From a virus (Duplodnaviria; Caudoviricetes): a DNA stretch of 28,040 nt. Shown here piece after piece: positions 1-17,759 of the stretch; the stretch's first letter is position 1, and every line of letters starts with the position of its first letter. The translations under genes and the position numbers were made by a program. The stretch lies in the IMG/VR virus record IMGVR_UViG_3300038427_000030, positions 1 through 28,040 of that record; one strand, written 5' to 3'. The notes under the pieces are model-generated. The model saw only the letters and a list, made by a program, of their open reading frames with translations, had not been told where the DNA came from and searched no databases.

Positions 1-334
1 GTATTCCAGAGTCACGACGGAGTTAGAGCCGCAAATCAGCCCTATCGTCGTTGCCCCTTCAATACTGAACAATCGCGGGAAACCCGCATTTAACAGCGTC
101 GAAGAGAGGCCCGTCTGTATGCTCGCGCCTGGTATCGTCGCAGCCGCCCCGATATTAACGTAAGTCGGAGATACCGACGGCGAGATCAAGACGTACGCGG
201 AGCCGGCCGGCGGTGTTGTCGGTGTTCGCTACGCTTGCCGCCAAGACTATGGCATTGACATAAGCCGACCGCATGAGGCCACCTGGCTCTACGATGTTTC
301 CGTTTTGGTCCACAATGCTTTTCAGTTGCTTCAT
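1..334 (-). pseudogene. Small beta-rich, probably virion-associated protein; frameshifted near 212-228 and truncated by the window edge
   Basis: AAGGAGG RBS precedes ATG at 334, giving MKQLKSIVDQNGNIVEPGGLMRSAYVNAIVLAASVANTD, but this frame stops near 155. The +1 frame reads TPPAGSAYVLISPSVSPTYVNIGAAATIPG...TTIGLICGSNSVVTLEY and is open to position 1. Not in the ORF track. Confidence 0.65.
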
Positions 335-343
335 AAACCCTCC

Positions 344-1621
344 TTATAGGTCCGGTAGTCCGTACTTCTTACCCTCTTTCATAACCTCTTCCAACGCCTC
401 AAATGTCGATTTATCGTAAGTCGCGCCTGGGCACTTAAAATTAGCCGCTGCCTCAAGACAATCGTATTCGGCTTCTTCAAGGGTGTTCCCGATACCAACA
501 CACTTTACGATGGTACACCCCACTTCCTTGATAGGTATTGTCCAAAACATGCCCTTTTGGTCGCGGCAAGCGGCTCGAAGGGCTATATGCTCAAAGTCTT
601 TGTCTTTCAATTCAATAGGCACAGATTCACAGTCAGCGCCGGACGCCTCAATACTCAACTCGGCAACATAGTCTGCGTTCCATTCCGGCTTTATCTCTGC
701 GCCGTCTGCCACCGCTTCGATGATCTTCCCAACATTCTTATATATCTTCATGATGCTGGCTACGGGCGGATTTCCGAAGCGCCTTGCGGGATCTGTAAAA
801 TGTGGTATTCTGTTCGCCCCCATGCGAATTTCCGTTGATATAGCACCATTCGTTTTATACTTCTTTTCAACGGGTGCCATGGCCGTAATAATTTTCTTAA
901 CAGGTATCGGCATTTTTTCGGTTTCAATATGAACAGCAAGATAGCCGTCACCTTTTAACTCCCACCCATAAAGGCTTTCCTGGTAATGGGTTCCGTTCGC
1001 CATAAATACGTCGTGTCCAAACTCTACGCCCGGTATCGGTCTTTCCCACATGAAGCCGACGTCATTCTTGCAGAAGGCACCGAGATCGTGGACAAGGGAA
1101 TAAAACCAGCCCTGTGTCTTTTCCCAGTTCTCATGATGGCGGGTTTCCATTATTCCTCGGTTTTCGGTATTCAGCTTTATCCATAAATCTTTTTCTTTCC
1201 GAAGCAAGGCTTCAAGTGCATCCGTACCTGTTACGGTACCCCAAACAGGTGTTGCCAGGCCCACGGATTTAAGTGTCTTCTTGAAGAGTATACGGTCAAA
1301 TTCCAGTTCTCCCGATTCACCAGAACCGAATACACGCCCCCCGGCAGCCCTCGCGGCCCTTTGTTCGTCTCCCATGCCAACGTCGGGGAATATAAATATT
1401 CCCTTGTCTTTTAGGATTTCCGCCTTGGCATCTTCATAGCTGTCAACTACGGTAATCCCCGGTATACCCTTGCCGATATACTGCATGTGCGGCTTTGGAA
1501 ATGCAGTCACCCATGGCACAGAATACATCACTTGCTTCACGTCATTTGCTATTGCCTGGCCAATACAGACGCCCAGGATGCCAAGATCCCGAATAAGCAC
1601 TTTTGTCTCAGATAGCTTCAT
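344..1621 (-). CDS. PurD (GAR synthetase)-like ATP-grasp ligase, substrate unknown (425 aa)
   Basis: Motifs parallel to PurD: VFGSGESGELEFDRILFKKTLKSVGLATP (cf. FGP..AA.LE.SK.F.K..M...GIPT), WIKL, WERPIPGVEF (cf. EE.L.G.E.S), FTDPARRFGNPP (cf. EFN.RFGDPE). Start moved from 1675 to ATG 1621, which has a GAAGGGGTG RBS. Confidence 0.8.
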   Translation of the reverse strand: MKLSETKVLIRDLGILGVCIGQAIANDVKQVMYSVPWVTAFPKPHMQYIGKGIPGITVVDSYEDAKAEILKDKGIFIFPDVGMGDEQRAARAAGGRVFGSGESGELEFDRILFKKTLKSVGLATPVWGTVTGTDALEALLRKEKDLWIKLNTENRGIMETRHHENWEKTQGWFYSLVHDLGAFCKNDVGFMWERPIPGVEFGHDVFMANGTHYQESLYGWELKGDGYLAVHIETEKMPIPVKKIITAMAPVEKKYKTNGAISTEIRMGANRIPHFTDPARRFGNPPVASIMKIYKNVGKIIEAVADGAEIKPEWNADYVAELSIEASGADCESVPIELKDKDFEHIALRAACRDQKGMFWTIPIKEVGCTIVKCVGIGNTLEEAEYDCLEAAANFKCPGATYDKSTFEALEEVMKEGKKYGLPDL

Positions 1622-1649
1622 TGACAAAACACCCCTTCCAGCATATAAT
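1621..1649 (+). promoter_or_regulatory. Consensus sigma70 promoter for the HNH gene
   Basis: TTGACA (1621-1626), 17-nt spacer, TATAAT (1644-1649); AAGGAG RBS at 1666-1671 before ATG 1681. Confidence 0.85.
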
Positions 1650-1680
1650 AGTGTAAATACTCGCCAAGGAGACACGTTTT

Positions 1681-2160
1681 ATGCCTACAGGCATTTATGA
1701 CCACAAGAAGGTCGCACCACTTCAAGAACGATTTAATAGGCTTGTTCAAGTTGCCACAGATAGCGGCTGTTGGTTGTGGCAGGGAGCTATTAATTCCGAT
1801 GGCTATGGAAATATGCGAGACGAAAACGGCAAAGTTGAATCTTCTCACCGCATAGCATGGAGAATTTTCAAGGGACAAATTCCTCCAAAAATGAGCGTCC
1901 TTCACAAGTGCGACAATCCCCCTTGCGTCAACCCCGATCATCTGTTTCTTGGTTTTCAGGTTGACAACAACATAGATTGCTATAAAAAGGGACGGCGCAA
2001 TAATAATGGCGTAAATAACCCGCGCTGCAAACTGACAAAAGAAACCGTAGATAAAATAAGGATTGATGGCAGGGTCAGCCATATTATTGCAAGCGAGTAC
2101 GGCATTTCTTCCAGCCATGTCAGAAGGCTTAAAAATGGTAAAGATTGGGCTAATCCTTAG
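1681..2160 (+). CDS. HNH homing endonuclease (HNH_3-like) with C-terminal helix-turn-helix
   Basis: CWLWQGA..DGYG, SHRIAW, VLHKCDNPPCVNPDHLFLG..DN motifs; C-terminal KLTKETVDKIR...IASEYGISSSHVRRL HTH. Confidence 0.93.
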   Translation: MPTGIYDHKKVAPLQERFNRLVQVATDSGCWLWQGAINSDGYGNMRDENGKVESSHRIAWRIFKGQIPPKMSVLHKCDNPPCVNPDHLFLGFQVDNNIDCYKKGRRNNNGVNNPRCKLTKETVDKIRIDGRVSHIIASEYGISSSHVRRLKNGKDWANP

Positions 2161-2165
2161 CTTCA

Positions 2166-2384
2166 TCATTTCACCTTTGGTTTAAGAACCGTGGCCTGGG
2201 CCGCGATATACTGGCTCCTGTTATTGTCGTCAATTTTCAACTGTATCCCGCCGACATAATCAATGTCGAATTTATCCCTGGCCTCATTAACAGCCGTAGC
2301 CAGTACCTCAACCGCCTCTTCGTAAGACCGGTCCTCGGATATTCCCGTAAAAACATAATACCCTGGTTTTGTATCTACTCTCAT
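2166..2384 (-). CDS. Small protein, DUF1737-like
   Basis: GGAGG RBS; pattern YYVFTG...LATAVNEA...YVGGIQL...YIAAQATVLK resembles the DUF1737 pattern L...VN.A...W...GG...QAMVK. Confidence 0.6.
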   Translation of the reverse strand: MRVDTKPGYYVFTGISEDRSYEEAVEVLATAVNEARDKFDIDYVGGIQLKIDDNNRSQYIAAQATVLKPKVK

Positions 2385-2394
2385 CGTGATCCTC

Positions 2395-5300
2395 CTATTC
2401 GTTTAGCACCTTCAAATATTTTTGCTTCTCTGCCTGGGTAATCTCCTTGTCGCCAGCTTTCTTCATTAATTTAGCTCTGAATATGGGTTTAAGTATCCTC
2501 TTTTCTTCGTCAGTGGCTTTTTCCTGAATGCCAACAGCTAAATCCTTTAGCTCCATATGCTTCGCATTTGAAACCATCTTGATGAGTCTGCCAACTTCGC
2601 CCACGTCTCCTTTTGCTATTGCGGAGATTGCGCTTTTTTCAATCTCTGTAATCTTGTGTTCCTGAACTGCATTGAAAAGCATCTTCCCGGCATTCCCTTC
2701 CGCTGCCTTCTCTCTTGCGAGCCGCTTTTCCAGCTTAACATTTCTCGGCACTTCCTCACGTAGGCCGGGGATTTGTAGCTTGGCAACATCGGCGGCCGTT
2801 GCGGGCTTGCGTTTGATTTCTTCGCCCGTCTCGTCTGTGTCCGTGGCCCTTGCGAGTTTCCCAACGTCCGGCGGCACGACCATGCTTGTTGCCAGTTCCG
2901 CGCCCGCTTTGGCCATTGATTCGGTATCTTTTAGTCCTTTTGCCAATCGTGACGGTTCTTCGAGAAATGGGATATTTGAGATAACGCCTTTAGTGGCTGC
3001 AATCGCACCTGCCAAAAGTCCGCCGCCCTTGAGCTTCTCCGCGTAACTGTTTTGAACCCTGTGGATAGTAGAACCGAGCTGCAATACTTCCAGCGCGGGA
3101 ATATGCAAGAACCAGTGCGGAAGCTCGACCCCGCCTATGCGGATACCGCCCCACTTCACGTCTCCCGCCTTTCTTCTTTCGCCCGGCTGGTAATAGCCGC
3201 CAATATCTTCATGGTTGTAATATCCGATAGCCAGGAGGGCCAATCCGATCAGCCCTTTGCTGAGTGACCGCCCGATATTGTCCGCCTGTTCCGGCGTGAT
3301 GTTTTTAAGGGCATCTTTATCGACCAGATACTTAATCACCTGGGCCGTGCCTTTCGGAACGCCGAAAGTATAGTCCATGGTTTCCAGCGCAAAGTTCGTT
3401 GGTACACGCACGATAGGAAGAAGCACTTTCGCAGCAGTGGTCATAACCTGCCCGCCGGTTCCCTTGCTGGCCATGTGCCGCAACGACATCTGATACCAAT
3501 CCGTGATAGCGTTCCTGTTCATCAGGATGGCCCTGTTTGCATCGTCGTAAGCCCTCCCGCACAAAGTCATTTGCACTACCGGGTCTGAAATATCCATACC
3601 TCTGTTGGCTGCCCACTGTGAGTTTTTTTCCAAAGACCGGAAAAACTCGGCACGTTTGGGCAATACCTTCAATGCGCCATGTAAATGTCCGAAAAAGTCA
3701 AGGGCTTCGGGTGGCAGATCGTTCCCCTGTTTCGGGCTGTAAAGAACGTCCAGTTGTCCTTTTCCTGTCTTGATTGTTTCCCACATATCTTCGGCTGTCT
3801 GCTTTTCCACAAACTGCCTAAATGCCTTCGCCTCTGCCTGTATATTAAGGCCGCCGCCATATCGCGGAGACTCGGCCATGATCTGCGAGTATCCGGGAAT
3901 CGCCGACCACAAGCCGCCCGCCAAATCCTCCGTTGGTGAAGTTGCAAACCTTGACAGCGCCGCATTGGTCAGTTTGGCGACTGTGGTCACGCTGGAAAGC
4001 AGCTCAAACCGCCGCCATTTCACTATGTATCGTTGCGCTTTTTCAATGCCTGTCTGATTTGCCAGCTTCAACTTCCAGACTTCCTCGTTGATGTTATTTT
4101 TTAGCCGCTCGGAATCGGCCTTCAGTTTCATGGCCTCCGGGTCAAGCGTTAATGTCTTTTTTGGGACTTTCGCAAAATCCTTATTCTTAAGCCTTTCTTC
4201 GAGTTCCGTAATCCTGTTTTTGGTTCGTGTCTTGTAAGACTGTAGTGCGATTTCTTCCGGTGTCCTCTTTGGCTTCGCTTCATCCTGCATGGCCTTGTAT
4301 ATTTCTTTCAGCTTGTCCCGCTTCTCGCGTAAGTCCTTAAGCTCCGGCGTTTCCGGCGTCGTACTCGGCTTCCTCTCCGGAAAGAGGTCTTTTTCTTTTA
4401 TCCTTCGCTCGTACTCCGCAATCGATTTCTGGACGGCAGCGGTCGCCACTTTGATCTTTTGCTCAGGCGACATTTCCGGCTTGCCTTCCATCTGTTCCAA
4501 AACATCTTTCAGTTTGTCGCGCTGGTCTTTTAATGCGTTCGCCTCTTCATCGTACTCAATGCCTATTTTCTTCGGGCTTTTCTCGCCGGTTTCAATCTGC
4601 TTGGTAAGGTCGGCAATCTGATTTCTCAGCCTGGTCTTGACGGCCTCAAGCGACGTCCGCCATTGCTCTTCGGGAGAACGGGCGTTCACGCTGTCAATGC
4701 CGCTTTCGCGCATGGCCTGTTTTACTTCCTTGCCAAGCCTTCGTACCTCGTCACTCAGCGGATCTCTTTGAGGGCCACTTCTTAAAGGAACCTGCCCGGC
4801 AACTGCGTCTTCGTATGCGGAAATAAGCCGCGCCTGGCGCCTCATTTCCCGTAATTGCGTTTCTATCTCGTCCCGACTTGGCATTGATGTCTTGCCGTAG
4901 CCGGAAATTGCGTCCCTGATGTCTCTTTTTGTAATGTCCGGGAAGTCGTCTTTTAGCTGGTCATGAATTTCACCGACCATATCCTCCACGGAAGCAACAC
5001 CCGCCATTATGCGATTTCTCGCCATCTGCGCGAGTACCACGACGGCTTGCGGGTCGAACATGAAATGAAGTGTAGTGGGCGAAAGAATCTCATTAAGATT
5101 TTTTACTAAGTTCCCAAATTCGGCATCCAACTCTTTTTTTGCAACGATCTTGCGTTCGCGGGCCTGGCCTAAATGCTTTTTTACTGCGCTTTCTTTTTTC
5201 AGTTCCCGCAGCGCTTCATCGGCTGCACGTTGCGAAGCCTCTTCGTCGTACTTCTGTATCTTCTGGTTGGCCTCTTCCAGTTTCTTGGTCAGCTCTTCGA

Positions 5301-8300
5301 TCTTTGCCCTGGTTTCTTCCGCTATTGGCTGCCCGGCGTTCGCCACTCTCGCCCGCTGCAAATTCCTTGCGAGAGAATAGTCGTCCATAATCATCATTCT
5401 TCGGGCAGCGAGCCCCAGGCCTTGCTCATATCCTGTACGTCGTGCGGCTTCATCGTTCGTGTTGATGTCGTCCTCAACCTTGGCGAGCTTCAAGCGCAGT
5501 TCCGTTTCCGCAATATCGTCACGCTTTTGCATTGCGTCTTCGATTGAGTCCATTAGCGCATGGTGGTCGTTCTGGAGCCTCATGCGGTCATATATGAGCA
5601 TTACGGATTCTTCGGCGGATAAAGCGCGGGGTTTTTTTGCCAGCTCTTCGGCCATGATCCGGGGATCGCGCTCACCGGAGTCAACAAGGCGCTTGCCTTC
5701 GTTAAACGCAGCTCCAAAACTTCTCTTGGCCTCCACTTCAACTTCGGATAATCCCTTGGTTTCGCGTTCTTCCAACGTGACGGCGTTCTTTATGCCTGTG
5801 GTGCGAGGCTCGGCGGCGCGGGGTTCTGCGGGTGCAGGTTCCGGCGTTTTTATAGCTTCTGCAATCTCCGGTTTGATCTCTGCCAGCTTTGAAATCTTTT
5901 CAAAAATAGCCGGTGCATCGGTAGTAATTTTAGCCTTATCCTCAATCGCCTTTTCCATGATGAGCTGCGAATAGCTCTTGCCGGTTCGCTTGTGCATAGT
6001 GTAAATATTCGCTGCACCTTTGGGCGTTTCCCACTTCAAACCCTCGGCTTCTTTTTTCATAGTCTCATCTGCAAAAACGTCCCTGGCCAGCTCCGGCACA
6101 TGGGGCGTCGTGCGCTTGACTTCACCTTCTGTTTCCGGTGGTTTGAAGTCTCCGCGCATCCTGTCGGCGTAGTCGGCCATAGCCTTAACTGCGGAACGTT
6201 CTGCTTTTCTAAAATCCTTAAAGAATTGACGGGTCTGAAAAACAAGGCCATCAAGCTTGGCGAGTAGTCTTATGAGCGCATCATAGACTTTCCTGAAAAT
6301 GCCCGGTTTTTTGCTTATCAAATTTTCCCAAAACTCAGGCTCTACAAATTGCCGCCCAATGTAATCCGCCGCATATTCTTCCATTGTTTCATCGTCTGTT
6401 AATTCCCTCCCATAAGTTTTCTCGTATTCTGCTCTGCGCTCTTTAAAATGCTCCGTGGCCTCAACATGAGACACAAAGCCGTCATAAATATCGGGTGCAT
6501 CATACCGGAGAGCGTGTAGTAATTCGTGTCCCAAAATCACCATGTGTGGGTCTGTTGCCGTCGCATTAAGATAGATCGCCGTAGCGTCTGCCGAAACAAA
6601 ATACCCAGGCAGCGCCCGTAAATCTTCTCCCTCAACCTGAAAAACCATGATCTTTTTCTGAAAAATGCTTCCCAGTTTTCCCAAGTCGTCCATGCGATTT
6701 CGTTTCCATAGACGTAAATTTTCGGGCGCAATTTTTCGACCAAGCGTCGCGCCAATGATGGCTGTGACATCTGCCAATGCTTTTGCATCCGTGATGCGGA
6801 CAGATATAGATGGGGTTGCATCTCCTGTTGCCTCCTCTAATTTGTATGGTGCTTTTTCGCCTTCATCGGTGGGGTATCTTTTCGCATAAACTTTCCCGCT
6901 CGCCATGTCCATCTGGACATCAGCGCCGGGTTCAATTACTGCGTCTTTGGGGATTTCCTGCCATTCGGAGGTCAGCGGAAACAGTTCTCCGCTCTTAGTT
7001 TGGGATTCTTCCGGCAGTCTTTCAAATTTCGCTTCGGGGTTTACAAGACTAAGGGTGTTGTCTACTCCGGGGAGTGCGGCTGTTTCTTCTGTGACAGTTG
7101 CTTTTGTGGCTTGCTTTTCTTCGGCGGGTTCTATGAATGAGCCGAAATAATCATTCAGCTCTCGTTCTGCGGCGTCGATGCTTGCGGGATCAAGCCCTTG
7201 CGCCTGAGCCTCGTCAAGAAGCCAGCCGCTAAGATGTTCCGGGCTTTCTTGTATTGTTCCGCTTTCGACTTTTTCAGACTCAAGTTTGGCTTTTGTCCAC
7301 TCATTAGGATCACCATTTCCTATTTCTTTTTCGTACTGAGCTATTATACCACGATATTCCCCAATTGCAACCTCTTTTTCGCCTCTACGCACAATTTCAT
7401 TATAAATGGCCTGTTGCCGTCCGGTCAGCGCCTTCCCGTCCAGTTTCTTGTTGATGATATTGATAGTATCCTTCGCGGATATGCTCTCAACCTTGCCGGT
7501 GGGAGACGTCTTCTTACTGCCAAAATCCTTAACCATAGCGGAAAACCAGGGCGGATAAGCCGACCCAGCGTAAATGGCCTCGTCCGTCACCTGATCTATA
7601 CCTATCTGCCCGCCAGCTTGTCCCGCCTGGAGCCGCGATCTCGCATCATAAAGGAAAAACTCGATGTCCGGCGCAACATTTCCGGGGATTTCTCCGGGTT
7701 CAAGTTCCTTGCCTTCCGCCTCCAGCTTGTCGGCCCATTTCTGCTTTGCCTCTTCCATCAGGGCAATCATGTCTACAGGCTCACCCTTTGCCCTTCTGTA
7801 TGCCGACTGTCTCTCAATATGATTGGTGAGGAACGAAACCCTTTCCCCTCCGCGTGGCTCAGTGGGCCTCACGGCTTCGGCTTTCGGCTCCACAAAATAT
7901 CTGCCTTCGCGGGGAGCGATGTCGTAATCCGCGAGCTCCAGTTTTCGATTTGAGATTGCCGCTACTGCCTCATCCTCTGTGGCATAGCCTTTATCGTCAA
8001 ATTTGGGGGCTGGTGTAACTAAGCGAGGGCCAACTTCGCCGGTTGCCCTTAATCTTCCCCTCGGTGTCGCCGCCCATATGGTATCGCCTTCTTTTCCTTC
8101 TTGCTGAGGCACCATATCAGGGTATTCTTTCATCACTTCCGGCGGTACGGGTTTGCCTTCGTCAATCGCCTTTTGAACAATAGATTCATGTTCGTCTGCT
8201 ATTTTTTCAATCAAGTCCATATTTGAGGACCACTCTTCATGTGGAAATCCCACCAACGCAGTCCCGTATTCTATCGGGGTCATTTTCCATGCTTCTTTGC

Positions 8301-10743
8301 CGCCTTTCTTCTCGGCCTCCAGTTCATGCAAGCCCCTTTCCATTTCGTCATAGTGTGCCTTTTTAATTTTATGCCTCGGCATGCCGAGTTCTTTTGCCAG
8401 TTGAGTTATCTTCTTATCAACCTGGTGTGGAAGTAATCGAATCACGTTTGCGGCTGCGCCTTCTTTCGCCTTTTCTTCCGTGACTTCCCCGCCTTCCGGT
8501 ACGCGATCGCTTGCGCTTGCTCCGGCGGCTTCCCCGAGTTTATCAGTTCCTCGATGTTCTTCGAGATCGTCCGGTTTGATTTCCCCTGTTGCAACGGCAT
8601 CTTCTATTACCTCCTTTTTGGCTGCTGCCAAATCTTGTGCATGTAATTCCGCCCCTTTTCCTGCTTCCTCCTGCCATTTCTTATAGGTTTCGGGGTCGTT
8701 TTCCTTCAACCATGTCTCAGCCTGTTCTCTTGTGAGAAAATTCCCATCGGGGTCAACAAAACCCCTTTCGTGGGCTGCATCGGGCGGAATCTCGTTCTCT
8801 TTCATTAATTCGGGGTGCGTTCCGCCTACTTCCCCATCGAACTGCTTCCCCTGGTACATGACAGAAGGGCGTAACGCCGGGGCAAATCCTGTTTCTGCTG
8901 GCTGTTCTCGTTTTGGGAGTCCTTTTCCTGCGACGACCCCCTCCGGTTCTTCCGGTTTAACACTGACAATCGGCTCACTAATAGGCTCCTTTTCTGCCCC
9001 TCCTGCTTTAGCCACAGGGCCAGGCTTGGCTTCTGTTTTTGCCGACGGCTCTTCCTTCACCGGTTCGGCTTCTGAAGGCTCTACGGGCTTTTCTGCCGCT
9101 TTCCCCTTCCCTTCCCTGTGTTCCTTAAAGCCCTTTGCGGCTTTCCGGAGATCCTTAGCAGACGGTTTTTTTATTCCGGCCTGTTTAAGCCCCAAGTTTA
9201 TTGTATAGTCAGCCATTATGTCGGCTTCGCCTTTAGTCACCGCACCATCATGGCCCTTATAAAACATATCCGAAAGATCGCTTTTGAGCTTTATATAGGC
9301 GCCGGCCCTGGTATATGGCGTCATTTTTATCAGGGCATCAACACCGTGGCCGGCTGCGGTCATTATTGCACCGAAAGCAGCGGTATTAAGTGCGCCTTCT
9401 GATAGGGTTTCCCCTTCCTTAAAGACGGTTTTGCCTTCTGTTTTGGTATATCTCGCTACAAGATCATCCCGTTGCGCGAGTAATTCCTTGATATGACGTT
9501 CCCCGATCGTAGCGTCAATCTGGTCGACCTGGCCTTTGGAAGTCGCGGTCATGGTATTAAGTTGATTGACCAGGGCGTTATGTTGCCGGATGAGGGCGTT
9601 CTTTTCTTCCGGAGTACGAGCGGCCTTAATCTTATCTTTCAGATCGTCGAGCTGGGCCTTCATCTGATTACCGGCCTCGTTATGCTTCGCAATCAGTTCA
9701 TTCCGCTGTTTTATAAGGTCCTCGGCCTTGCTGCCTTTGAGCTTTTTATCGACGTCCTGTATCTTCTTTTCGAGATTCCGCTGTTCCTCGAGGGCTTCTT
9801 CTGTCAATTCCGTTCGGCCAGGCTCACGCGGGAAGGCAGCACCGACAACACCGCCGGCCGCTGTCTGAACGCCTATCTGTTCAATCGTGGATAGTTGCCG
9901 TAAGGCTGTGGCTCCGGCCTCGCTGCCAGATACTACTGCCCCTGTCCTTGCTGCATGGGCCATCCGGAGCGCATTTATGCCCTTAGTAATATTGCTTGAA
10001 ATTGCTGTCCAGGGTCCGCCTACTGCCGTCATTTCAGCGGATAGGCCAATGTACGGGTTTTCGGCTATATCTTTTGATACTCCGTAATCTTCTTGAAGGG
10101 TTTTACCCATGGGCGTAGTTACTTTGGCCTTTTTAGAAGTAAATGGTATTCCCACTTGACCGGTTTCGGGGTCCACTATCCCCAGGGTCATGCCTTTAAT
10201 AATACCGCCGCGCACCTTTTCAGTAACGCCGTAAACGTCTTTGGCCCATTGTTCTACATACGGGGCCACGTCTTTAATAGTTTGAAACGCCCTCATCAAT
10301 GGCCCCTCTGCCGGCTTCGCCTGGGCGTCGGTGATCTCCTTTGTCTTTGCGGCCATGGCCGTATCAATGTCCGGCGCCATTTCTTTTCCGGCCGGTTTTC
10401 CCCATGTGCCGGCTTGTATCTGCCGATTCTGTTCCTCGGCCATTTCCCGATATGCTGCGGGCACCTGGGAAACATCTACCAGTTTCGGCTTTGGCCGTGA
10501 TTCCGCTGGGGCTCCTGGCGCGGCTGCCGGCTTCGGCTTCTCTTCGCCGGCGATATAGTGCGTGAATCTCTCCCACAGGGTAGGCTTCTTAGCCGGTTTA
10601 AGAGATTCCGGTTTTTCACCGAGATTCCTTAACTCTTTTATGATTGTATCGTCGGCATCAATGCGTTCTTTGGCAGTTGTTTCTACTGGCACCTTCCCGC
10701 CAAGAGATTGCAATTCATCAAATATAGGGTCTGCCGTTGCCAT
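2395..10743 (-). CDS. Giant internal virion/ejection protein (2782 aa), polyvalent-type, with a zincin metallopeptidase-like domain
   Basis: Last of the internal-protein cluster. Has Ala/Gly hydrophobic helices, coiled coils, an acidic Pro-rich linker, the HExxH motif GHELLH (6514-6528) followed by EEYAAD, and a C-terminal hydrophobic helix [13 protein letters not shown]. Confidence 0.8.
4090..4680 (-). repeat. Three degenerate ~65-70-aa helical repeats within the giant protein
   Basis: [28 protein letters not shown] / [24 protein letters not shown] / [25 protein letters not shown], each followed by a ..LK..RDKLK-like helix. Confidence 0.55.
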
Positions 10744-12591
10744 TTATTTACTACCTGTGTGTTCTTTTTTTGCTTCTTCCCATGCTTCGTCGGGGTCAAT
10801 GTCCTTTTTCTCTTGTATTTCTTTGGCCCTTTTGACAAGTTTATCAATAAGTGCCCTCTGCTTTGGATTCAAGCGGGCCCTCATAGCGTGGAAGTTTTTG
10901 ACATTTTTCATTACACCCTCACTATCAATATCGTTTGGGTCAACCAACGCTTTTACATATTCGTCATGGGCAGATTGTTCAATACTCTTCGCAGCTTCTT
11001 TTTTATCTTTTTTCGCCTCTCTTTTTTCTTTTTTGTCCTCTGCGCTTGTATCTTTTGGCTGCCGCTGCCTCGGACTAAACCTGGGCCCCCATGTAACACC
11101 GCCATCCCTCGATTCCAGGTCAACACCTTTCTCAGTTTTGTATTGGATTTCGCTTTTCGGCTGCTTCTCCGGTATCATCGTCTTTGTCAAGTCTGCGATC
11201 TCTTTTACGGACAGATCGCCACTTTCTCCGAGCTTTTCTGCCAGTGCTGCCCGTCGCTGATCTGTCGTCATACCATCCCAGCCCGCCGTTTTTTGAAGTT
11301 CCTTAAAGGCAGAAGTAACCGCTGCGCTTTCGGTCCTTCGCTCTTCCTTCTTTTCGCGTCTTGCATGCAGTTCATCCCAATAGCGCGGGTTCTGCGCTTC
11401 GGCCCGCAACACCATATCTATGACCCTGCCATGCTGGTCATGCGAGGCTGTTATAAAATTAAGAGGTATTTGTGCAATCGTGTTAGGGTCTGCGTTAAGG
11501 CCGAGCGGAGCATCATAGGCTCTAACTTTTTTTCCTTCGCCCTTGTCTTGTATATTCTGTGTGTATCTTTCGAGATCTGCCTTACCTATGCCGGTGTTAA
11601 GATCACGGTTTAATATTTCATCATAAGCCTTTGCATCTGCTTCCGTCGGAAATTTGCCAAGATGCTCACCGGTTTTTTCATACCGTTTTACGGCCTCTTC
11701 GTTGGTCATAAATTTACCGTCGGGCGCTACCGTCGGAAGTAAAATAGTCGTGCCATCCTGTTTGATTGTGATTGTCCGGATGCTGCTTATACTTCCGTTC
11801 GCATTACCGTGAATTTTACGGTTCGGGTCGTTTAGATTGATGTTGCCCTGTTCAACCTGATTTATGGTATCGTCATGCGGATACTGATATACCTGGCCAT
11901 CCGAAATATGCGGGAATATATCGTCACCGACGGGAGATTCTATATGAAGGCCGAATGACATTTTGCCATCCCTAATAAAAATCTTATTGATCGTCACAAC
12001 CCTCCCGTCCTTGTCGCCCTTCCCGTACCGGTCCTTAAAATCGCTTTGGATATAGGGCATTACTTTGGCGAGGTCGTCCATAGCCTTATCAACCTCGGGC
12101 CCGTATTTCCCTCTTTCAATGACGCCGTTAGCCTTCTCAAGTGAGTCTTTATGCTTAATGTAGAAAGCTGTTAAATTCCGATGCGCTCTTGTATATGTCT
12201 GAAAGTCCTCCTGGGTTTTCGGGGTACTGTGTGAAGCCTTGTGGACCTCGAAGAGTGAATCTAACTCTTTATCACTCATGGCGTAGATTTCGCCCTTTGC
12301 CTGTGCGGCCTGGGCCTTCTGATAAGCCTGGTGTACCACTTCAAGGTGCGGCGCGATCGCGGCCCATTTTGCCTTTTGATCTAATTGCTGCGAAGCATCG
12401 GCTATCTGTTTCTTTTTTAATTCCTGTTCAGCCGGCGCCAGCTCTTCCTCGCGTTCAGCCCTGGCCAGTGTCAGTTGCCTCAACTTCCGTTTCACCGGCT
12501 GGTCCTCGAGCGTATCCAGGATATTAAGAAACCTTTGTGCTGATTCCAGGCCCGCGCCTACAGGGTCCGAATATACAGATCTGAGTGCCAT
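10744..12591 (-). CDS. Internal virion/ejection protein (615 aa)
   Basis: GGAGAGG RBS; charged helical protein placed between the small Ala/Gly-rich proteins and the giant protein, as in podoviral ejection cassettes. Confidence 0.7.
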   Translation of the reverse strand: MALRSVYSDPVGAGLESAQRFLNILDTLEDQPVKRKLRQLTLARAEREEELAPAEQELKKKQIADASQQLDQKAKWAAIAPHLEVVHQAYQKAQAAQAKGEIYAMSDKELDSLFEVHKASHSTPKTQEDFQTYTRAHRNLTAFYIKHKDSLEKANGVIERGKYGPEVDKAMDDLAKVMPYIQSDFKDRYGKGDKDGRVVTINKIFIRDGKMSFGLHIESPVGDDIFPHISDGQVYQYPHDDTINQVEQGNINLNDPNRKIHGNANGSISSIRTITIKQDGTTILLPTVAPDGKFMTNEEAVKRYEKTGEHLGKFPTEADAKAYDEILNRDLNTGIGKADLERYTQNIQDKGEGKKVRAYDAPLGLNADPNTIAQIPLNFITASHDQHGRVIDMVLRAEAQNPRYWDELHARREKKEERRTESAAVTSAFKELQKTAGWDGMTTDQRRAALAEKLGESGDLSVKEIADLTKTMIPEKQPKSEIQYKTEKGVDLESRDGGVTWGPRFSPRQRQPKDTSAEDKKEKREAKKDKKEAAKSIEQSAHDEYVKALVDPNDIDSEGVMKNVKNFHAMRARLNPKQRALIDKLVKRAKEIQEKKDIDPDEAWEEAKKEHTGSK

Positions 12592-12606
12592 AACGACCTC
12601 TCCTTA

Positions 12607-12912
12607 TTAAAATAGTTTGCTAACAAGAAAACCCAGGGCCATGCCAGCCATTGCACCGACGGGGCCGGCAGCCGCACCAAACTCCGCACCCATAGCAGCG
12701 CCCGAAGCCCCGCTTGTAGCAGCCATCCAACCTCCAGTGGCTCCTACTCCTATCATCGAGCCCTCCATCTGTTTCTGTTGCATAGTGCTCTCGGCTTGCA
12801 GATTCATATTGGCCACGTTTATCTGTTCTTCGAGTTCATCGGCACGGATAAGGCCTTTTGTAGCTGACCCGAGCTCTTCTTCGCCAAAACCAAGTAATCC
12901 TTTGGCCATCAT
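12607..12912 (-). CDS. Small internal virion/pilot protein with Gly/Ala-rich membrane-type C-terminus
   Basis: C-terminus GAAMGAEFGAAAGPVGAMAGMALGFLVSKLF; GGGAGG RBS (second ATG at 12909 has the better spacing). Confidence 0.7.
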   Translation of the reverse strand: MMAKGLLGFGEEELGSATKGLIRADELEEQINVANMNLQAESTMQQKQMEGSMIGVGATGGWMAATSGASGAAMGAEFGAAAGPVGAMAGMALGFLVSKLF

Positions 12913-12920
12913 AAACCTCC

Positions 12921-13319
12921 CTACATTTTAGGCATTGAACCTAATAAAAGTTGCTCATCTTCTGCCGCAACGTCGGCTCGAGCCTTATTCATGGCGCCCG
13001 CCGTTGCCTGGGCCCCTTCCACGTTCATAATCCTGTTAGAAGCCATGGTTTGTTCCGCGGTCGGCGCTATTCCCATGCCTTTCTGCCGTCTTTGCAACAT
13101 ACCTGGCATGGCAGCGTATGTACCCTGGGCGGTCGATTGCGCTTTACTCACGGCATCCGTAAGCACCTGGGGATTAACCAGGGAGCTTTGCTGTAATGCT
13201 GCGAGCTCGATCGGCTTGAAAGTATTTTCCCACTCGGCCCACTCTGCGGCCATTACATCAGCGGCGATCTGATCTGCGCTGCCGCTCATGTCAATTCCAG
13301 TTACGGGATCTATAGCCAT
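12921..13319 (-). CDS. Small internal virion protein
   Basis: GGAGG RBS; Ala/Gln/Met-rich helical sequence; position in the ejection-protein cluster. Confidence 0.65.
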   Translation of the reverse strand: MAIDPVTGIDMSGSADQIAADVMAAEWAEWENTFKPIELAALQQSSLVNPQVLTDAVSKAQSTAQGTYAAMPGMLQRRQKGMGIAPTAEQTMASNRIMNVEGAQATAGAMNKARADVAAEDEQLLLGSMPKM

Positions 13320-13331
13320 ACAAACCTCCGA

Positions 13332-13922
13332 TTAACCCGTTACGCCTTCATTTAAGAGAGCTGGCGACATTTGCCTGTTCGTCGTTTTTGTTGTTCCCTG
13401 TCCGTATTTGAGTGCACCGGCGCCCACCATTCCAGCGACGGACCCGATCATATTTTCTTCCGCGCCGATTTCTTCCTGTTGTACCTCTTCCGCTTTAATG
13501 GCCTCACTGACAGACAGGCCGGCTATATCACTTAATCCGGCGGTCGCCTGTGCTTGCTCGCCGCGGCCCATGGCGACGATGTTTTCCGTACTCATTAGCT
13601 CACGGGTCCTTTCCGCGCCCTGGCCGGATACTTCGGCGCCGGTTTTCAATCCCGCAAGATTTGAAAGCATCTTCTGATTCTTAACCGGATTAGCTGACAT
13701 TTTAGTGGGGTCAACCTTACTCATTACGTCGGCATTGATCTGTCCGGCAACCTGTCTGCCCCGTTCGGCCTTAACCGTCGGGTCCGTTTCCTGGGCGATA
13801 TACTTATCCATGACAGGCTTAGAATTTTGCAGATAGTATTTATACTGCTCCGCAGATATATCAGACTGTTTTTCCTGTAATGCCGTTTCCGATACTTGTG
13901 GTGCCGACCCGCCGCCGCTCAT
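13332..13922 (-). CDS. Internal virion/DNA-ejection protein
   Basis: MSGGGSAPQVSET N-terminus and C-terminal hydrophobic GSVAGMVGAGAL, typical of small podoviral ejection proteins; ATGA overlap with the upstream gene. Confidence 0.7.
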   Translation of the reverse strand: MSGGGSAPQVSETALQEKQSDISAEQYKYYLQNSKPVMDKYIAQETDPTVKAERGRQVAGQINADVMSKVDPTKMSANPVKNQKMLSNLAGLKTGAEVSGQGAERTRELMSTENIVAMGRGEQAQATAGLSDIAGLSVSEAIKAEEVQQEEIGAEENMIGSVAGMVGAGALKYGQGTTKTTNRQMSPALLNEGVTG

Positions 13923-14371
13923 ACTGTCACCGCCTTTTTAATGTACGTTTTAAGATCTCCTTCAACCGAAACAAGATCGAAGCCCAACAATGCCATCCAA
14001 TCCGGAGTGCGTTCGTGCGTCTGTACCGATCGGCCCTGGAGCTCCCATTCCGGATTGTCCTCAATAATCCTGTCGGAGAACTGTTTGAAGAACCGCGCCA
14101 TCGGTTTCCATATCCTCGCAAATCCTTCTTCGGTTGCCTGTGACATAATATCCCACTTCATTCCTCCGAGGGGATGCAGTATTATCAAGACGCACGGCGT
14201 CATGTCGTCGTCGTACAGTATCGCCGCCCAGGGCTGGCCGATCATGCTCTTACAGTATTTCCGGAAATCCTCTATCGCCGTGCCGAATACCGCGAGCTCA
14301 TGCCGGCCACGCTCCCAAAGATTATCGACGATATAATCAATCCCCTCGGCTGTGAGGTCCGTTATCTTCAC
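13919..14371 (-). CDS. GNAT-fold virion assembly protein (T7 gp13/P22 gp14-like position)
   Basis: IDYIVDNLWERGRHEL N-terminus and HERTPDWMALLGF C-terminal motif; sits between tail genes and ejection proteins. Confidence 0.65.
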   Translation of the reverse strand: MKITDLTAEGIDYIVDNLWERGRHELAVFGTAIEDFRKYCKSMIGQPWAAILYDDDMTPCVLIILHPLGGMKWDIMSQATEEGFARIWKPMARFFKQFSDRIIEDNPEWELQGRSVQTHERTPDWMALLGFDLVSVEGDLKTYIKKAVTV

Positions 14372-14374
14372 GGA

Positions 14375-14746
14375 CTACGAAATCCCGATCTCGCCTTCTG
14401 CCTCGAAGGTAAGAGAAGTATTCGCGCTTGCAAGCCCTGTAAGGAAATCTGCGGCGTCAAGTCTGAGTGCCCCGTACCAATCAATGTACGAGTACGCCGC
14501 GACAGAGTTCAGCGTTCCCATAAATTCCGTGCCGGCCGCGCTACCACCAGTTGCGCCGACATAAAGGGAAAAAGTCACCGCGCCGGCCGTCTTGTTGACT
14601 ATGCGGATATGCCTTATGATAACGTAAGGTGCCGTCATAGTGAAACCAATAGGCCCACTTAACGAGGAAACAGTCGGGTTTACAAGGTTTGCGGCGCTGT
14701 TTGTCAACGCCGTAGGTCCGAATCTGATAAGTTTGTTTGCTGCCAT
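14375..14746 (-). CDS. Small beta-sandwich virion protein
   Basis: AAGGAGG RBS; alternating beta pattern IIRHIRIVN...VTFSLYVG...LRLDAADFLTGLAS. Confidence 0.7.
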   Translation of the reverse strand: MAANKLIRFGPTALTNSAANLVNPTVSSLSGPIGFTMTAPYVIIRHIRIVNKTAGAVTFSLYVGATGGSAAGTEFMGTLNSVAAYSYIDWYGALRLDAADFLTGLASANTSLTFEAEGEIGIS

Positions 14747-14764
14747 CTTCTATAATCCTCCTTG

Positions 14765-15287
14765 TTATGTTGTGAACTTGTTAAACAAAGCGATCAGCTT
14801 TGCTGAATCGACATTATATTGAGTACAGAAGGCTACCCATTCGTGGTCGGGAGTTCCGAAGTCACCCATGAATCCGGTCACCCAGGCCAACCATTGATTC
14901 AGTGCGGGGTTCGCTCCCCAATCTCTTTTGACAAAAGTTAAGTTGCCGTCAGCGCCTTCTCTTATCGTATAAGAGTTGGCTAATTCATCCCCCCCTCGAC
15001 GTCCAATCTGTCAGCTTCTCTTCCGGTGCGAGGGCGTTCATTACTGCCGTGGTCATAGCCGCAATTACAGGAGCAAAATGCGTCGCTGGGTCTTGCGTCT
15101 GATCGTAGTTGTCAAGAATACCGTTGGCAATTATTTCCTCCATCGCAATAAAAGCGGGGCCGTGAGTTACATAGTAGAGCCATTGGACTTGACCCGAATC
15201 CTGGTCAATCGTGTTTAAAACGATGAAATAATCCTGTATGCCGATGGTAACCTTGCCAAGTATCTGCCTTCCAAAATTTACTGCCAT
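14765..15287 (-). CDS. Tail-fibre-associated protein interrupted by a +1 frameshift at a G7 tract (100 aa as read; 173 aa if G6)
   Basis: GGGGAGG RBS. The frame stops at 14985 just after GGGGGGG (14989-14995). The shifted frame DELANSYTIREGADGNLTFVKRDWG...LFNKFTT is open to TAA 14765, just before the next RBS. Confidence 0.65.
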
Positions 15288-15297
15288 AATTCCTCCC

Positions 15298-16359
15298 CTA
15301 TCCTATTCTTTCTACCCCGACTAAACCGTTGCCACCAGCTCCCGAAACACAAGTGGCAGTATGAGCACAACCACCGCCTCCTCCTCCAACTCCACCCGCA
15401 GAACCAGGAGTGCCATTACCAGTTCCCCCACCACCCCCAAGAACGCCTCCACAGGAAGTACCATAACCTGCTCCACCTGCTCCCGAGCCACCACCCTGTT
15501 GACTTGCCCCTACTGCACCGCCTCCCGAAACGGCTCTAAATGGGTCAATTAAGGAGTCAAAACCTACACAGAATGAAGTAGCCGAGTTGGTATAATTGCC
15601 GCCCTGACGCCATACTCCATCCATACTTGCCTTGCTTTGATAACCCATTCTATTAGGACCAGCGGTTGCAACCGTATTAGTATTCGCAGCTGCATTTCCT
15701 CCTGTTCCACCACCACTTGTGTTTCCAACAGTAGCATTATTTTCATCTCCACCTGTAAAGCCCCCTACTGCACCGCCTCCTGTTCCACCCGACATGGCTT
15801 GATTTGCGTTTCCTCCTCTGCCTCCCGTTCCCCAAGGACTTCCAGCGGCACCGCCTCCGCATCCGTTATAGTAAGTTGCCGTAAGGGTAGGTGCACCACC
15901 AGCACCACCCGTTGAGTTTATTGTTCCTCCCGTTGCCGTTCCTCCCGCACCACCAGTAGAAGAGCCAGCGGTAATACGCCAGCTACCTGCTCCACCTGCA
16001 CCAGCTGACAAGGATAAACTTCTTGCTGCACATACAACGGTAGTTGCTCCACTTCCCGCATTTCCATTTACTCCTGTGTCCGAAACCGAAGATGTGACAG
16101 CTGCCCCTCCTGTTCCTATCGAAAGGGTAAGAACATCACCTGCTACCATGTTTATTTCAATTTCACTAAATCCACCGCCACCACCGCCCGAAGCCACACC
16201 TTGAGTTGAACCGTAAATAGCTGCACCACTTCCTCCAGGACCAAGTGCTGATATTCTATGCTTTCCTGTATATGGAATAGTAAAAGATACTACTCCAGGC
16301 GTAAAGAGCATACAGGTGTTGGTCATTTTGCCATAATAAAACTGACTTAAATCACTCAC
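15298..16359 (-). CDS. Glycine-rich tail fibre tip/adhesin (receptor-binding candidate)
   Basis: Many GGxGG motifs, ISALGPGGSG and a terminal GAGGNGLVGVE. Start probably GTG 16359 (GGAGG RBS, GTGA overlap) rather than 16374. Confidence 0.8.
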   Translation of the reverse strand: MSDLSQFYYGKMTNTCMLFTPGVVSFTIPYTGKHRISALGPGGSGAAIYGSTQGVASGGGGGGFSEIEINMVAGDVLTLSIGTGGAAVTSSVSDTGVNGNAGSGATTVVCAARSLSLSAGAGGAGSWRITAGSSTGGAGGTATGGTINSTGGAGGAPTLTATYYNGCGGGAAGSPWGTGGRGGNANQAMSGGTGGGAVGGFTGGDENNATVGNTSGGGTGGNAAANTNTVATAGPNRMGYQSKASMDGVWRQGGNYTNSATSFCVGFDSLIDPFRAVSGGGAVGASQQGGGSGAGGAGYGTSCGGVLGGGGGTGNGTPGSAGGVGGGGGGCAHTATCVSGAGGNGLVGVERIG

Positions 16360-17567
16360 GGGGCTATCCTCCATCCATTAGTTACACCCGAATAAACAAG
16401 ACAAAAGTTTGCATACTGTGTTGATACTGTCATATCCGCAGAAATACCCATTATCTTTAGAGAGTTTGCGCCGATTGTTAAAGGGTACGAATTAAAAGTT
16501 CCCGCACAATCAGTAATTCCCACGATCGCTCCCGTTGCTGGTGCACCTGGCAGGGTAACAGTAAACGAACCTCCCGAAGTGTCGCACATGTATCCGTTTT
16601 GTGTAACAGCGTTTGTAGCACTATTAGCGTAATTCCAGGTCATACCTCCGGCGGCGGCCGGCCCTTGTGGGCCTGGTATTGGCATCCCGTCCTCACCAGC
16701 CTCGCCGTCGTTAGGCATATAAACCGATATGCCTATCGGACCAGTTGGGCCAGGTATCGTCGAAGCGGCCCCTGGCGGTCCTGGTATCGGCATGCCATCC
16801 TCACCACGCTCGCCTTGATCGCCAGGAATGAGTTTACCTGGCGGGCCCGTAGCGCCGACAGAAACGGCCGTCCATGTAATCGTCGATGTATCTATAACGA
16901 TAGGCGCGGCAGTTGAAAGGTACCATTGTGACAAAACCTGGGAGCCACCGGCCATAATCCATACGGTTGCACCCTGGACAGCCGTGCTATACATATCAGA
17001 GGTACGTTGAAGTACGGCACTAACTCCCGCGCTGCCCGCAACGAGAACGATATAAATACCGTTCTGCGTACCGGTGACCTGGTTTTTAAGCAAGATGCGA
17101 TCGCCGACATTTACGCTTGTGCTATCAACGGAGAGTGCACCTGTGGCAGTAAGGGTAAATTGTTTAGAAGTAGAATTATAGGTGCCGGTAAGAGCTCCCG
17201 TCGTAGCAAGCCGGCAGGGCCCGAACGCTGAAAACGGACCAGCCAAGTTAGCTTCAACCGCGAGCTGCCACATACTGAGAGCAAAGGGCCAGTTACGATC
17301 TCCGGCATTGAACTTCAGTAATCCGGAAGTCGGCAGAAAATCACGCCATACGTTCAGCGCGACGTTTGTTTTGGCCGTTCCCTGGTACGGCGCCGTAAGC
17401 TGTATGCTGATGTTGTCCGTCGGGTTAGAGGCAACATAGTAAAAGGCGTTTTCGCCGTAAAACTGTACGACATTTCCCTGGTAAACATTGTTTATCAGCG
17501 TCGCGCCGGTACATGTTATGGTCGTGCCGCCGTTAGCTATGCTTGCCGCTGCTATCTGAAACTGCAT
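16356..17567 (-). CDS. Multi-domain tail fibre protein with collagen-like linker
   Basis: N-terminal fibre-type domain (TITCTG...IQLTAPYQG), a CRLATT...GDRILLKNQ..QNGIY domain, Gly-X-Y repeats, and a C-terminal YMCDTSGGSFTVTLP...LVYSG..GW domain. Confidence 0.8.
   Translation of the reverse strand: MQFQIAAASIANGGTTITCTGATLINNVYQGNVVQFYGENAFYYVASNPTDNISIQLTAPYQGTAKTNVALNVWRDFLPTSGLLKFNAGDRNWPFALSMWQLAVEANLAGPFSAFGPCRLATTGALTGTYNSTSKQFTLTATGALSVDSTSVNVGDRILLKNQVTGTQNGIYIVLVAGSAGVSAVLQRTSDMYSTAVQGATVWIMAGGSQVLSQWYLSTAAPIVIDTSTITWTAVSVGATGPPGKLIPGDQGERGEDGMPIPGPPGAASTIPGPTGPIGISVYMPNDGEAGEDGMPIPGPQGPAAAGGMTWNYANSATNAVTQNGYMCDTSGGSFTVTLPGAPATGAIVGITDCAGTFNSYPLTIGANSLKIMGISADMTVSTQYANFCLVYSGVTNGWRIAP
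16665..16850 (-). repeat. Collagen-like Gly-X-Y region with duplicated GEDGMPIPGP
   Basis: GERGEDGMPIPGPPG and GEAGEDGMPIPGPQG; related DNA at ~16672-16697 and ~16780-16805. Confidence 0.8.
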
Positions 17568-17742
17568 TGTTTTGCGCTCCTATTATTTTATCAAGGGCAG
17601 CTTCCAGTTCTCCGTTGCGTTTTTTTAACGCCCTTATTTCTTCTTGCTGATTGAGTACCGCGGCCGAATATTCAACAAGAGTTTCAGCCATCACCTTTGT
17701 CCTGTTTACTTCAATGTCCGTTAATCCTTTTACTTGTAGCAT
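17533..17742 (-). CDS. Small coiled-coil protein, possible fibre chaperone
   Basis: AAGGAGGT RBS; heptad QQEEIRALKKRNGELEAAL; lies between two fibre genes. Confidence 0.6.
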   Translation of the reverse strand: MLQVKGLTDIEVNRTKVMAETLVEYSAAVLNQQEEIRALKKRNGELEAALDKIIGAQNNAVSDSSGKHS

Positions 17743-17759
17743 CCTATTACCTCCTTCAC

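Follow-up and report, generated by a model that had tools for sequence, protein, structure and literature searches.

Host genes can tolerate an endonuclease insert that is carried by a group I intron or an intein. For free-standing endonuclease genes, a standing question is how they become established in densely packed phage operons with no harm to the adjacent genes (PMC2988022). Here, we analysed a free-standing HNH endonuclease gene that lies inverted in an operon of a tailed phage (Caudoviricetes), on a contig of 28,040 nucleotides (IMG/VR record IMGVR_UViG_3300038427_000030, positions 1 to 28,040). This whole stretch is referred to as the window; unprefixed coordinates are those of the window, and + and − are its strands. 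In this virion operon, the HNH gene is located between a 72-amino-acid (aa) gene upstream and an ATP-grasp gene at the downstream end, and its opposite strand carries one long open reading frame (ORF). Probably, this antisense ORF acts as a translated ribosome relay, which would preserve translational coupling and prevent polarity. The relay likely lets ribosomes cross the insert and so maintains expression of the downstream gene, because the same layout was strongly enriched among inverted HNH genes of other phages.

Among the closest described systems are mycobacterial interspersed repetitive units (MIRUs), for which Supply et al. 1997 (PMID 9426136) is said to be the original source. The papers compared below (PMC12548453, PMC2988022, PMC6728339, 10.1101/2022.08.31.505936 and 10.1101/2020.12.30.424838), as well as the standing question above, are cited from excerpts. 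MIRUs are mobile inserts that sit at start codons; the ORF inside them is coupled to the host gene by a −4 (ATGA) overlap, and this coupling was proposed to minimise the effect on host expression (PMC12548453). The insert in the phage contig likewise sits at a start codon, where a 9-bp repeat of the host start is found, and its internal ORF is coupled by an ATGA overlap. However, MIRUs are short dispersed mycobacterial repeats, whereas here a 545-bp insert is filled by an HNH gene, and the coupling frame comprises 182 codons that are antisense to the nuclease gene and coexist with its code, promoter and ribosome-binding site (RBS). The insert appears to work like a MIRU, yet it is not one.

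The seg and mob genes of T4-type phages are, like the HNH gene here, free-standing endonuclease genes between essential phage genes (PMC2988022). Of these, mobE overlaps its upstream gene, but it is co-oriented and itself the coupled ORF, unlike the relay, and segD is inverted like the HNH gene, but closed on the operon strand. The excerpts of PMC2988022 do not describe an antisense relay. MobA of T4-type phages is an HNH element that, like the present insert, carries its own translation fixes (out-of-frame terminal extensions and a 50-nt bypass) and re-supplies a piece of the host gene; it splits a protein and involves ribosome hopping, whereas here the host protein is intact and the fix would be an antisense frame (10.1101/2022.08.31.505936). 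The words 'antisense' and 'opposite' do not occur in that text. Termination-reinitiation takes place at ATGA and TGATG gene pairs (PMC6728339), and for comEB-comEC the upstream ORF must be translated while its protein is dispensable for transformation (10.1101/2020.12.30.424838). The overlap types are the same in the window, and the ORF would similarly be needed for its translation rather than its product; those pairs are ordinary co-oriented genes, whereas the relay is the reverse strand of a selfish gene. Unlike in group I introns and inteins, no splicing element was found here, and the insert is predicted to stay in the mRNA and to be read through. No description of an antisense relay was found in the literature searched, a search with most subscription journals and supplements outside its scope; PMC10055350 contained no passage on antisense, orientation or overlap.

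The initial annotation had described a stop-free minus-strand frame across the inverted HNH gene. This frame was indeed open from both ATG 2169 and ATG 2166 to the TGA at 1620-1618, and the remaining two minus-strand frames contained 13 and 12 stops over 1600-2169. As also claimed, it is in codon register with the HNH gene, and among the 8 leucine and 10 serine codons of the latter TTA, CTA and TCA are absent. The start codons overlap the upstream TGA at 2168-2166, ATG 2169 as ATGA and ATG 2166 as TGATG, and the terminal TGA overlaps the ATP-grasp ATG 1621 as ATGA, hence the overlapping stop and start codons of a coupled gene pair are present at both ends (2169-2164 and 1621-1618). The probability that the HNH codons hold no antisense stop was 0.043 under the codon usage of the phage itself and 0.0026 under a model fitted on 170 co-oriented HNH genes; that of an open frame across the 20 non-coding codons was 0.34, and the chance of landing in the ATGA frame was ~1/3. 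The combined chance (open HNH × 0.34 × ~1/3) amounted to ~0.005 to 0.0003, and in a genome-wide scan the locus alone is suggestive, not decisive. The exact coupling at both ends had been put forward as hard to explain by chance. Both overlaps are real, but at a single locus they weigh less than was claimed: the 5' overlap comes free because the old host start stays in place after duplication, and the 3' overlap is expected about once in three because ATG-A contains TGA in one of three frames.

The comparison of inverted with co-oriented HNH genes, proposed in the same annotation as a check, was performed on 455 loci and the window, from which 396 complete HNH ORFs were taken; clustering at 65% identity reduced them to 295. 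The orientation of the flanks was called with the HNH gene masked, because an open antisense frame could hide a neighbour; this procedure replaced an earlier unmasked caller (9/22 versus 6/128, window included). It gave 170 co-oriented and 33 inverted clusters (window included), and 92 that were mixed, unsure or too short were not counted. The first 80 loci had been inspected before the test was designed, and the window was excluded from the discovery contrasts. Zero in-register antisense stops were recorded in 11 of the 32 inverted clusters versus 5 of the 170 co-oriented ones (Fisher p=7.6e-7), and a single antisense frame spanned 85% or more of the gene in 18/32 versus 15/170 (p=7e-9). Inverted HNH genes are thus more often open on the antisense strand, as had been anticipated. 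One of the 11 stop-free inverted genes, that of locus L098, sits inside a gene rather than between genes.

The contrast in cover of at least 85% was found in the low, middle and high GC bands alike (3/11 versus 0/44, 6/9 versus 1/53 and 9/12 versus 14/73). When the use of TTA, CTA and TCA was fitted on co-oriented genes, the codon model expected 0.64 stop-free inverted genes against the 11 observed, a number reached in 0 of 200,000 simulations; for the co-oriented genes 7.2 were expected and 5 observed. A logistic model with GC and length as covariates gave an odds ratio of 37 for orientation. Third-position A was not depleted in the other four-fold codons (0.236 versus 0.226), and a same-strand off-frame control was open in 2/32 versus 2/170. 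An artefact of GC or strand composition was ruled out by the GC bands, the fitted model, third-position A and the off-frame control.

The result was reproduced in a held-out viral scan evaluated by the same criteria, in which 112 new loci contained 100 complete HNH ORFs; these formed 57 new clusters, of which 31 were classed. Stop-free frames were present in 2/2 inverted versus 0/29 co-oriented clusters (p=0.002; expected 0.0003). Both open frames end as ATGA on the host start, and at the 5' end both overlap the upstream stop as TAATG; in one of these loci (L612) the first host codons are repeated at the 5' junction, as in the window. With all sets pooled, including the cellular genomes considered below, stop-free frames were counted in 15/40 inverted and 10/242 co-oriented clusters (p=1.7e-8).

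The ends of the frames were analysed in 26 open loci (cover of at least 75%, inverted or unsure on one side; the window was excluded, and no host gene was called for L230). The stop of the open frame fell within −11..+8 of an independently chosen host start in 14/26 loci versus 5/100 control frames (p=5e-8), the controls comprising 3/52 from the other two frames and 2/48 from closed loci. Exact ATGA/GTGA or TAATG/TAGTG overlaps were observed in 7/26 (L015, L031, L097, L158, L278, L143 and L286), and short coupled ORFs appear, by eye, to finish the bridge in L094, L386, L170, L097 and L056. PHROGs matched 36 of 70 neighbour proteins, mostly of head and tail families and on the called strand; the host starts of L015, L058 and L097 are confirmed by matches that extend from profile position 1. 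Across loci, only the 3' overlap is significantly enriched. It was shown statistically across loci that selection keeps the frame open and sets its stop at the host start.

The gap to the next host start was longer for closed inverted genes (median 147.5 nt, n=16) than for open ones (61 nt, n=27; p=0.010), which suggests room for a separate promoter. An operon-strand open frame was absent in two known inverted endonuclease genes, S-CBS4 gp066 and T4 segD. The longest operon-strand frame over segD was 79 codons, versus 223 codons of the gene; a terminator stands after gene 23, before segD, and before gene 24 there is a TATAAATA box, which we take to be the T4 late promoter motif. In cultured phages, 8 annotated tblastn matches of 266 matching records were examined, and 8/8 were co-oriented.

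Openness rather than the peptide seems to be kept, because open frames also occur out of register and third positions show no extra conservation. Out-of-register frames, with an unrelated peptide, were found in L109, L277, L286 and L406. The four-fold third positions of the HNH gene set the first base of the antisense codon, and their agreement was 436/1497 (0.291) in open inverted pairs versus 3498/12261 (0.285) in co-oriented pairs, a comparison of 56 distant pairs (~49% identical) and 70 sampled genes of the 170 co-oriented ones in which weak constraint could be missed. Openness and stop position are kept, and the peptide sequence seems not to be. The relay peptide of the window is hydrophobic (GRAVY 0.54), with a 19-residue stretch at residue 51 of mean hydropathy 2.67, and Pfam and PHROG searches with it gave no match.

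In two loci the inverted HNH gene lies in frame within a longer ORF. In L098:1126-4155 (+) this ORF encodes 1009 aa, and the antisense strand would be read as a protein insertion of ~200 residues; Pfam and PHROG searches with the 1009-aa ORF gave no match, and two motifs that flank the HNH gene recall, we presume, a DNA methyltransferase. In L230:451-3069 (+) the ORF encodes 872 aa, including a portal domain (PF04860), and the insert lies in its C-terminal part. These in-frame inserts are the same openness constraint in another setting.

The nuclease encoded in the window matched PF13392 (E=1.6e-10, above the family cut-off) and phrog_1872 (E=1.5e-33), and its C-terminal part resembles a helix-turn-helix (HTH), with a weak phrog_4629 HTH match (E=0.09). 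In an alignment with 53 homologs, the family-invariant residues C30, H75, C77, D78, C82, N84, H87 and N96 were all present. The gene stands outside any intron or intein, with its own start, stop and promoter match; the predicted promoter was the best of 22 sigma70-type matches in window 1-20000 and the only one of 12/12, and its −35 box abuts the ATP-grasp start codon. The insert had been said to supply a new RBS within this promoter spacer, and GAAGGGGTG was located there at 1638-1630 (−), also inside the relay ORF. Outside the HNH gene the insert has only ~65 nt. The two copies of the 9-bp direct repeat are exact and 545 bp apart, and the upstream one is probably the original ATP-grasp start.

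The HNH gene is optional at this site, because HNH-free loci exist (L085, L087 and L090), and tight linkage of the ATP-grasp gene is common. The HNH ORF was absent from up to 1.5 kb upstream in 7/7 non-identical ATP-grasp loci (L085-L091), which are distant relatives (31-53% identity) and not close empty alleles. In L085, a homolog of the 72-aa protein (28% identity, E=5e-9) is encoded directly before the ATP-grasp gene, with no HNH gene between, and the ATP-grasp start lies at the upstream stop in L087 (TAA-ATG) and in L090 (TAATG). The gap before the ATP-grasp gene of L085 holds a promoter match: at L085:2965-3001 (+), a 10/12 extended −10 match ends 6 nt before the ATG, which would mean a leaderless mRNA. 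In a scan of cellular genomes with the ATP-grasp protein, no relative was found among 84 candidate stretches. From what is known of the family, the HNH enzyme would home onto an endonuclease-free allele.

Based on these data, the following sequence of events was proposed. The old ATP-grasp start would already have been coupled to the upstream stop when a selfish insert, the HNH gene, captured it; the insert would also have provided a new RBS and duplicated the first three ATP-grasp codons. After termination at the upstream TGA, ribosomes would restart on the old start codon and translate 182 codons into a disposable peptide; at the ATGA they would terminate again and, helped by the supplied RBS, reinitiate on the ATP-grasp gene. 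The coupling would thus be kept, and ~550 nt of mRNA otherwise exposed to Rho or nucleases would be covered, with the HNH gene expressed from its own convergent promoter. Selection may act through a survival filter on inverted inserts or through later codon changes. We consider it rather likely that this is a general strategy of inverted phage endonuclease genes, beside introns, inteins and genes-in-pieces, which would include the in-frame inserts.

The strongest competing explanation is a sub-case of the relay without reinitiation, in which the frame is translated only to shield the mRNA, the ATP-grasp gene initiates from its own RBS and the ATGA is incidental. It fits the Shine-Dalgarno-like motif 8 nt before ATG 1621, over which no stable structure was predicted (z=−0.55), the stops outside −11..+8 in 12/26 open loci and the established Rho polarity on untranslated RNA (PMC12548453). 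Yet the stops cluster at the host start (14/26 versus 5/100) with 7/26 exact overlaps, and on the operon strand the insert has no clear excess of C (118 C, 116 G). Mere cover is possible but doubtful. A chance shadow ORF at this locus, with overlaps that are by-products of duplication, is unlikely. The phage itself has in-register open runs of up to 288 codons in host genes, P(open) reaches 0.043, stop-free co-oriented HNH genes do exist (5/170 viral, 5/43 cellular), and the overlaps come automatically at the 5' end and about once in three at the 3' end. However, GC is 57% or higher in each of the 5 stop-free viral genes that are co-oriented, compared with 44% GC and a fitted P of 0.0026 for the HNH gene of the window, the frame also spans 20 non-coding codons, and chance predicts no dependence on orientation where an odds ratio of 37 was obtained. 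For the whole class, chance is largely refuted.

A functional protein product of the antisense ORF, such as an HNH inhibitor or a membrane protein, seems very improbable. Proper starts, the 19-residue hydrophobic stretch and a modest coding score of 11.6 (own heuristic) would agree with it; but the antisense of a hydrophilic gene is expected to give a hydrophobic peptide, no Pfam or PHROG match was obtained, sites that change the antisense peptide show no extra conservation (pairs ~49% identical), and other elements use a different frame and hence an unrelated peptide. We give equally little credence to regulation of the HNH gene, in which operon ribosomes would change how far the convergent HNH transcript is subject to transcriptional interference or RNA pairing. 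The HNH promoter does face the operon, the transcripts would be complementary over the whole gene, and the excerpts of PMC2988022 mention a concern about antisense transcription from the promoters of inverted endonuclease genes; this explanation leaves the stops on the host start codon and the in-frame inserts of L098 and L230 unexplained. The least probable idea, to which almost no weight was given, is removal of the insert by self-splicing, a ribosome hop between the 9-bp repeats or excision, with the frame incidental. Direct repeats do flank the insert, and the loss of one unit would restore the coupled junction. On the other hand, the junctions lack an unusual fold, no DNA joint that skips 1622-2166 was present in four DNA assemblies (contigs drop rare variants), and there is nothing to splice, as the host gene is whole after the insert. 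A group I or II intron was rejected: no Rfam match was found in 1-3000 at E up to 1, no ribozyme core was seen, and only ~65 nt lie outside the HNH gene.

Several observations weigh against the relay. The ATP-grasp gene has a usable RBS, so reinitiation may be unnecessary, and 14/32 inverted viral HNH genes lack any frame of at least 85% cover. Orientation and host starts came from our own heuristic gene caller and were PHROG-checked for part of the neighbours, the −11..+8 range was chosen after some junctions were known (the held-out loci fit exactly), and the held-out viral set contained just two inverted loci. An ATG near the upstream stop was not significantly enriched (7/20 versus 12/64, p=0.14, with 13 loci skipped), and in L031 that stop has no start codon nearby. 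In GC-rich cellular genomes (80 loci, 73 new clusters, 49 classed), stop-free frames were present in 2/6 inverted versus 5/43 co-oriented clusters, which was not significant (p=0.20), and 85% cover gave no contrast (2/6 versus 11/43, p=0.65); open inverted frames with a start codon overlapping a stop occur there in L513, L530 and L531. A close empty-site allele was not found, and single-protein scans for one returned only copies of the same phage. The HNH tree is weakly resolved, with 8/200 branches starred, and it does not fix the number of independent origins: the open inverted state required 16 changes for 19 rows (shuffled mean 18.4), and starred branches offered just 4 independent pairs. 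Even so, for 11/19 open inverted genes the top BLASTP match was a co-oriented gene, and the host genes differ widely. Five loci (L058, L094, L097, L143 and L170) may represent one insertion event.

In these five loci, the inverted HNH gene (50-65% identity among the three compared) stands before a virion or tail-fibre gene; these host genes are homologous, and their products start with M-x-[FY]-N-G-[ST]-G-T-F. All five frames are open, and their ends differ: −8, +29 with a short extra ORF, ATGA and TAGTG. They constitute a ready series for dating the relay.

The features of the window locus are collected in Table 1.

Table 1. Genes, predicted signals and repeats at the HNH insertion site (positions in the window).
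Feature	Position	Strand	Details
ATP-grasp gene (downstream host)	344..1621	−	425 aa, PurD-like; start 1621 as in 24 homologs (alignment)
9-bp repeat, downstream copy	1613..1621	−	first three ATP-grasp codons; contains relay TGA as ATGA
Antisense relay ORF	1618..2169	−	183 codons from ATG 2169, 182 from ATG 2166; in codon register with HNH
HNH promoter, predicted sigma70-type	1621..1649	+	TTGACA-17-TATAAT, 12/12 consensus
ATP-grasp RBS, predicted	1630..1638	−	GAAGGGGTG (Shine-Dalgarno-like), 8 nt before ATG 1621
HNH RBS, predicted	1666..1671	+	AAGGAG, 9 nt before ATG 1681
HNH endonuclease gene, free-standing	1681..2160	+	159 aa, inverted relative to the operon
9-bp repeat, upstream copy	2158..2166	−	relay start overlapping upstream TGA; complement contains HNH stop codon
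72-aa gene (upstream host), function not assigned	2166..2384	−	TGA at 2168-2166

The same phage was recovered in peat and wetland DNA assemblies. By our gene caller, the minus strand of the window carries 26 of 27 genes, among them those for the major head protein, the adaptor, virion proteins, a 2782-aa protein and the 72-aa and 425-aa proteins; the HNH gene is the sole plus-strand gene. Pfam and PHROG searches with the 425-aa protein gave no match. The label ATP-grasp, assigned from the letters alone, agrees with the outcome for a profile built from 25 homologs, which matched phosphoribosylamine-glycine ligase (1vkz_A, E=1.1e-7). A start at the upstream GTG 1675 was ruled out, as the homologs begin at 1621. 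This PurD-like family (24 homologs, no Pfam or PHROG entry) is encoded near virion genes in unrelated phage contigs, and at L036:3001-4702 a closed inverted HNH gene lies directly 3' of an apparent member (by eye), a second HNH gene adjoining that family. Three sigma70-type matches (10, 10 and 9 of 12) were located on the operon strand at 7343-7490 (−), inside the 2782-aa gene, and might act as an internal promoter for the distal genes, the ATP-grasp gene among them. A 21-bp stretch at 204-224 has a second, inverted copy ~9.6 kb off in longer assemblies of the same phage, in which one base is missing at 216.

For inverted endonuclease genes, the relay frame would be a new answer to the question of how they are tolerated in phage operons. 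If true, the general strategy would cover a third to half of the inverted HNH genes of the family and explain a class of long antisense ORFs selected for openness only. That selection can act on a long antisense ORF whose protein is of no use bears on the reading, and possibly on the origin, of antisense overlapping genes, and the relay would give a codon-level measure of selection on polarity and coupling in wild phages.

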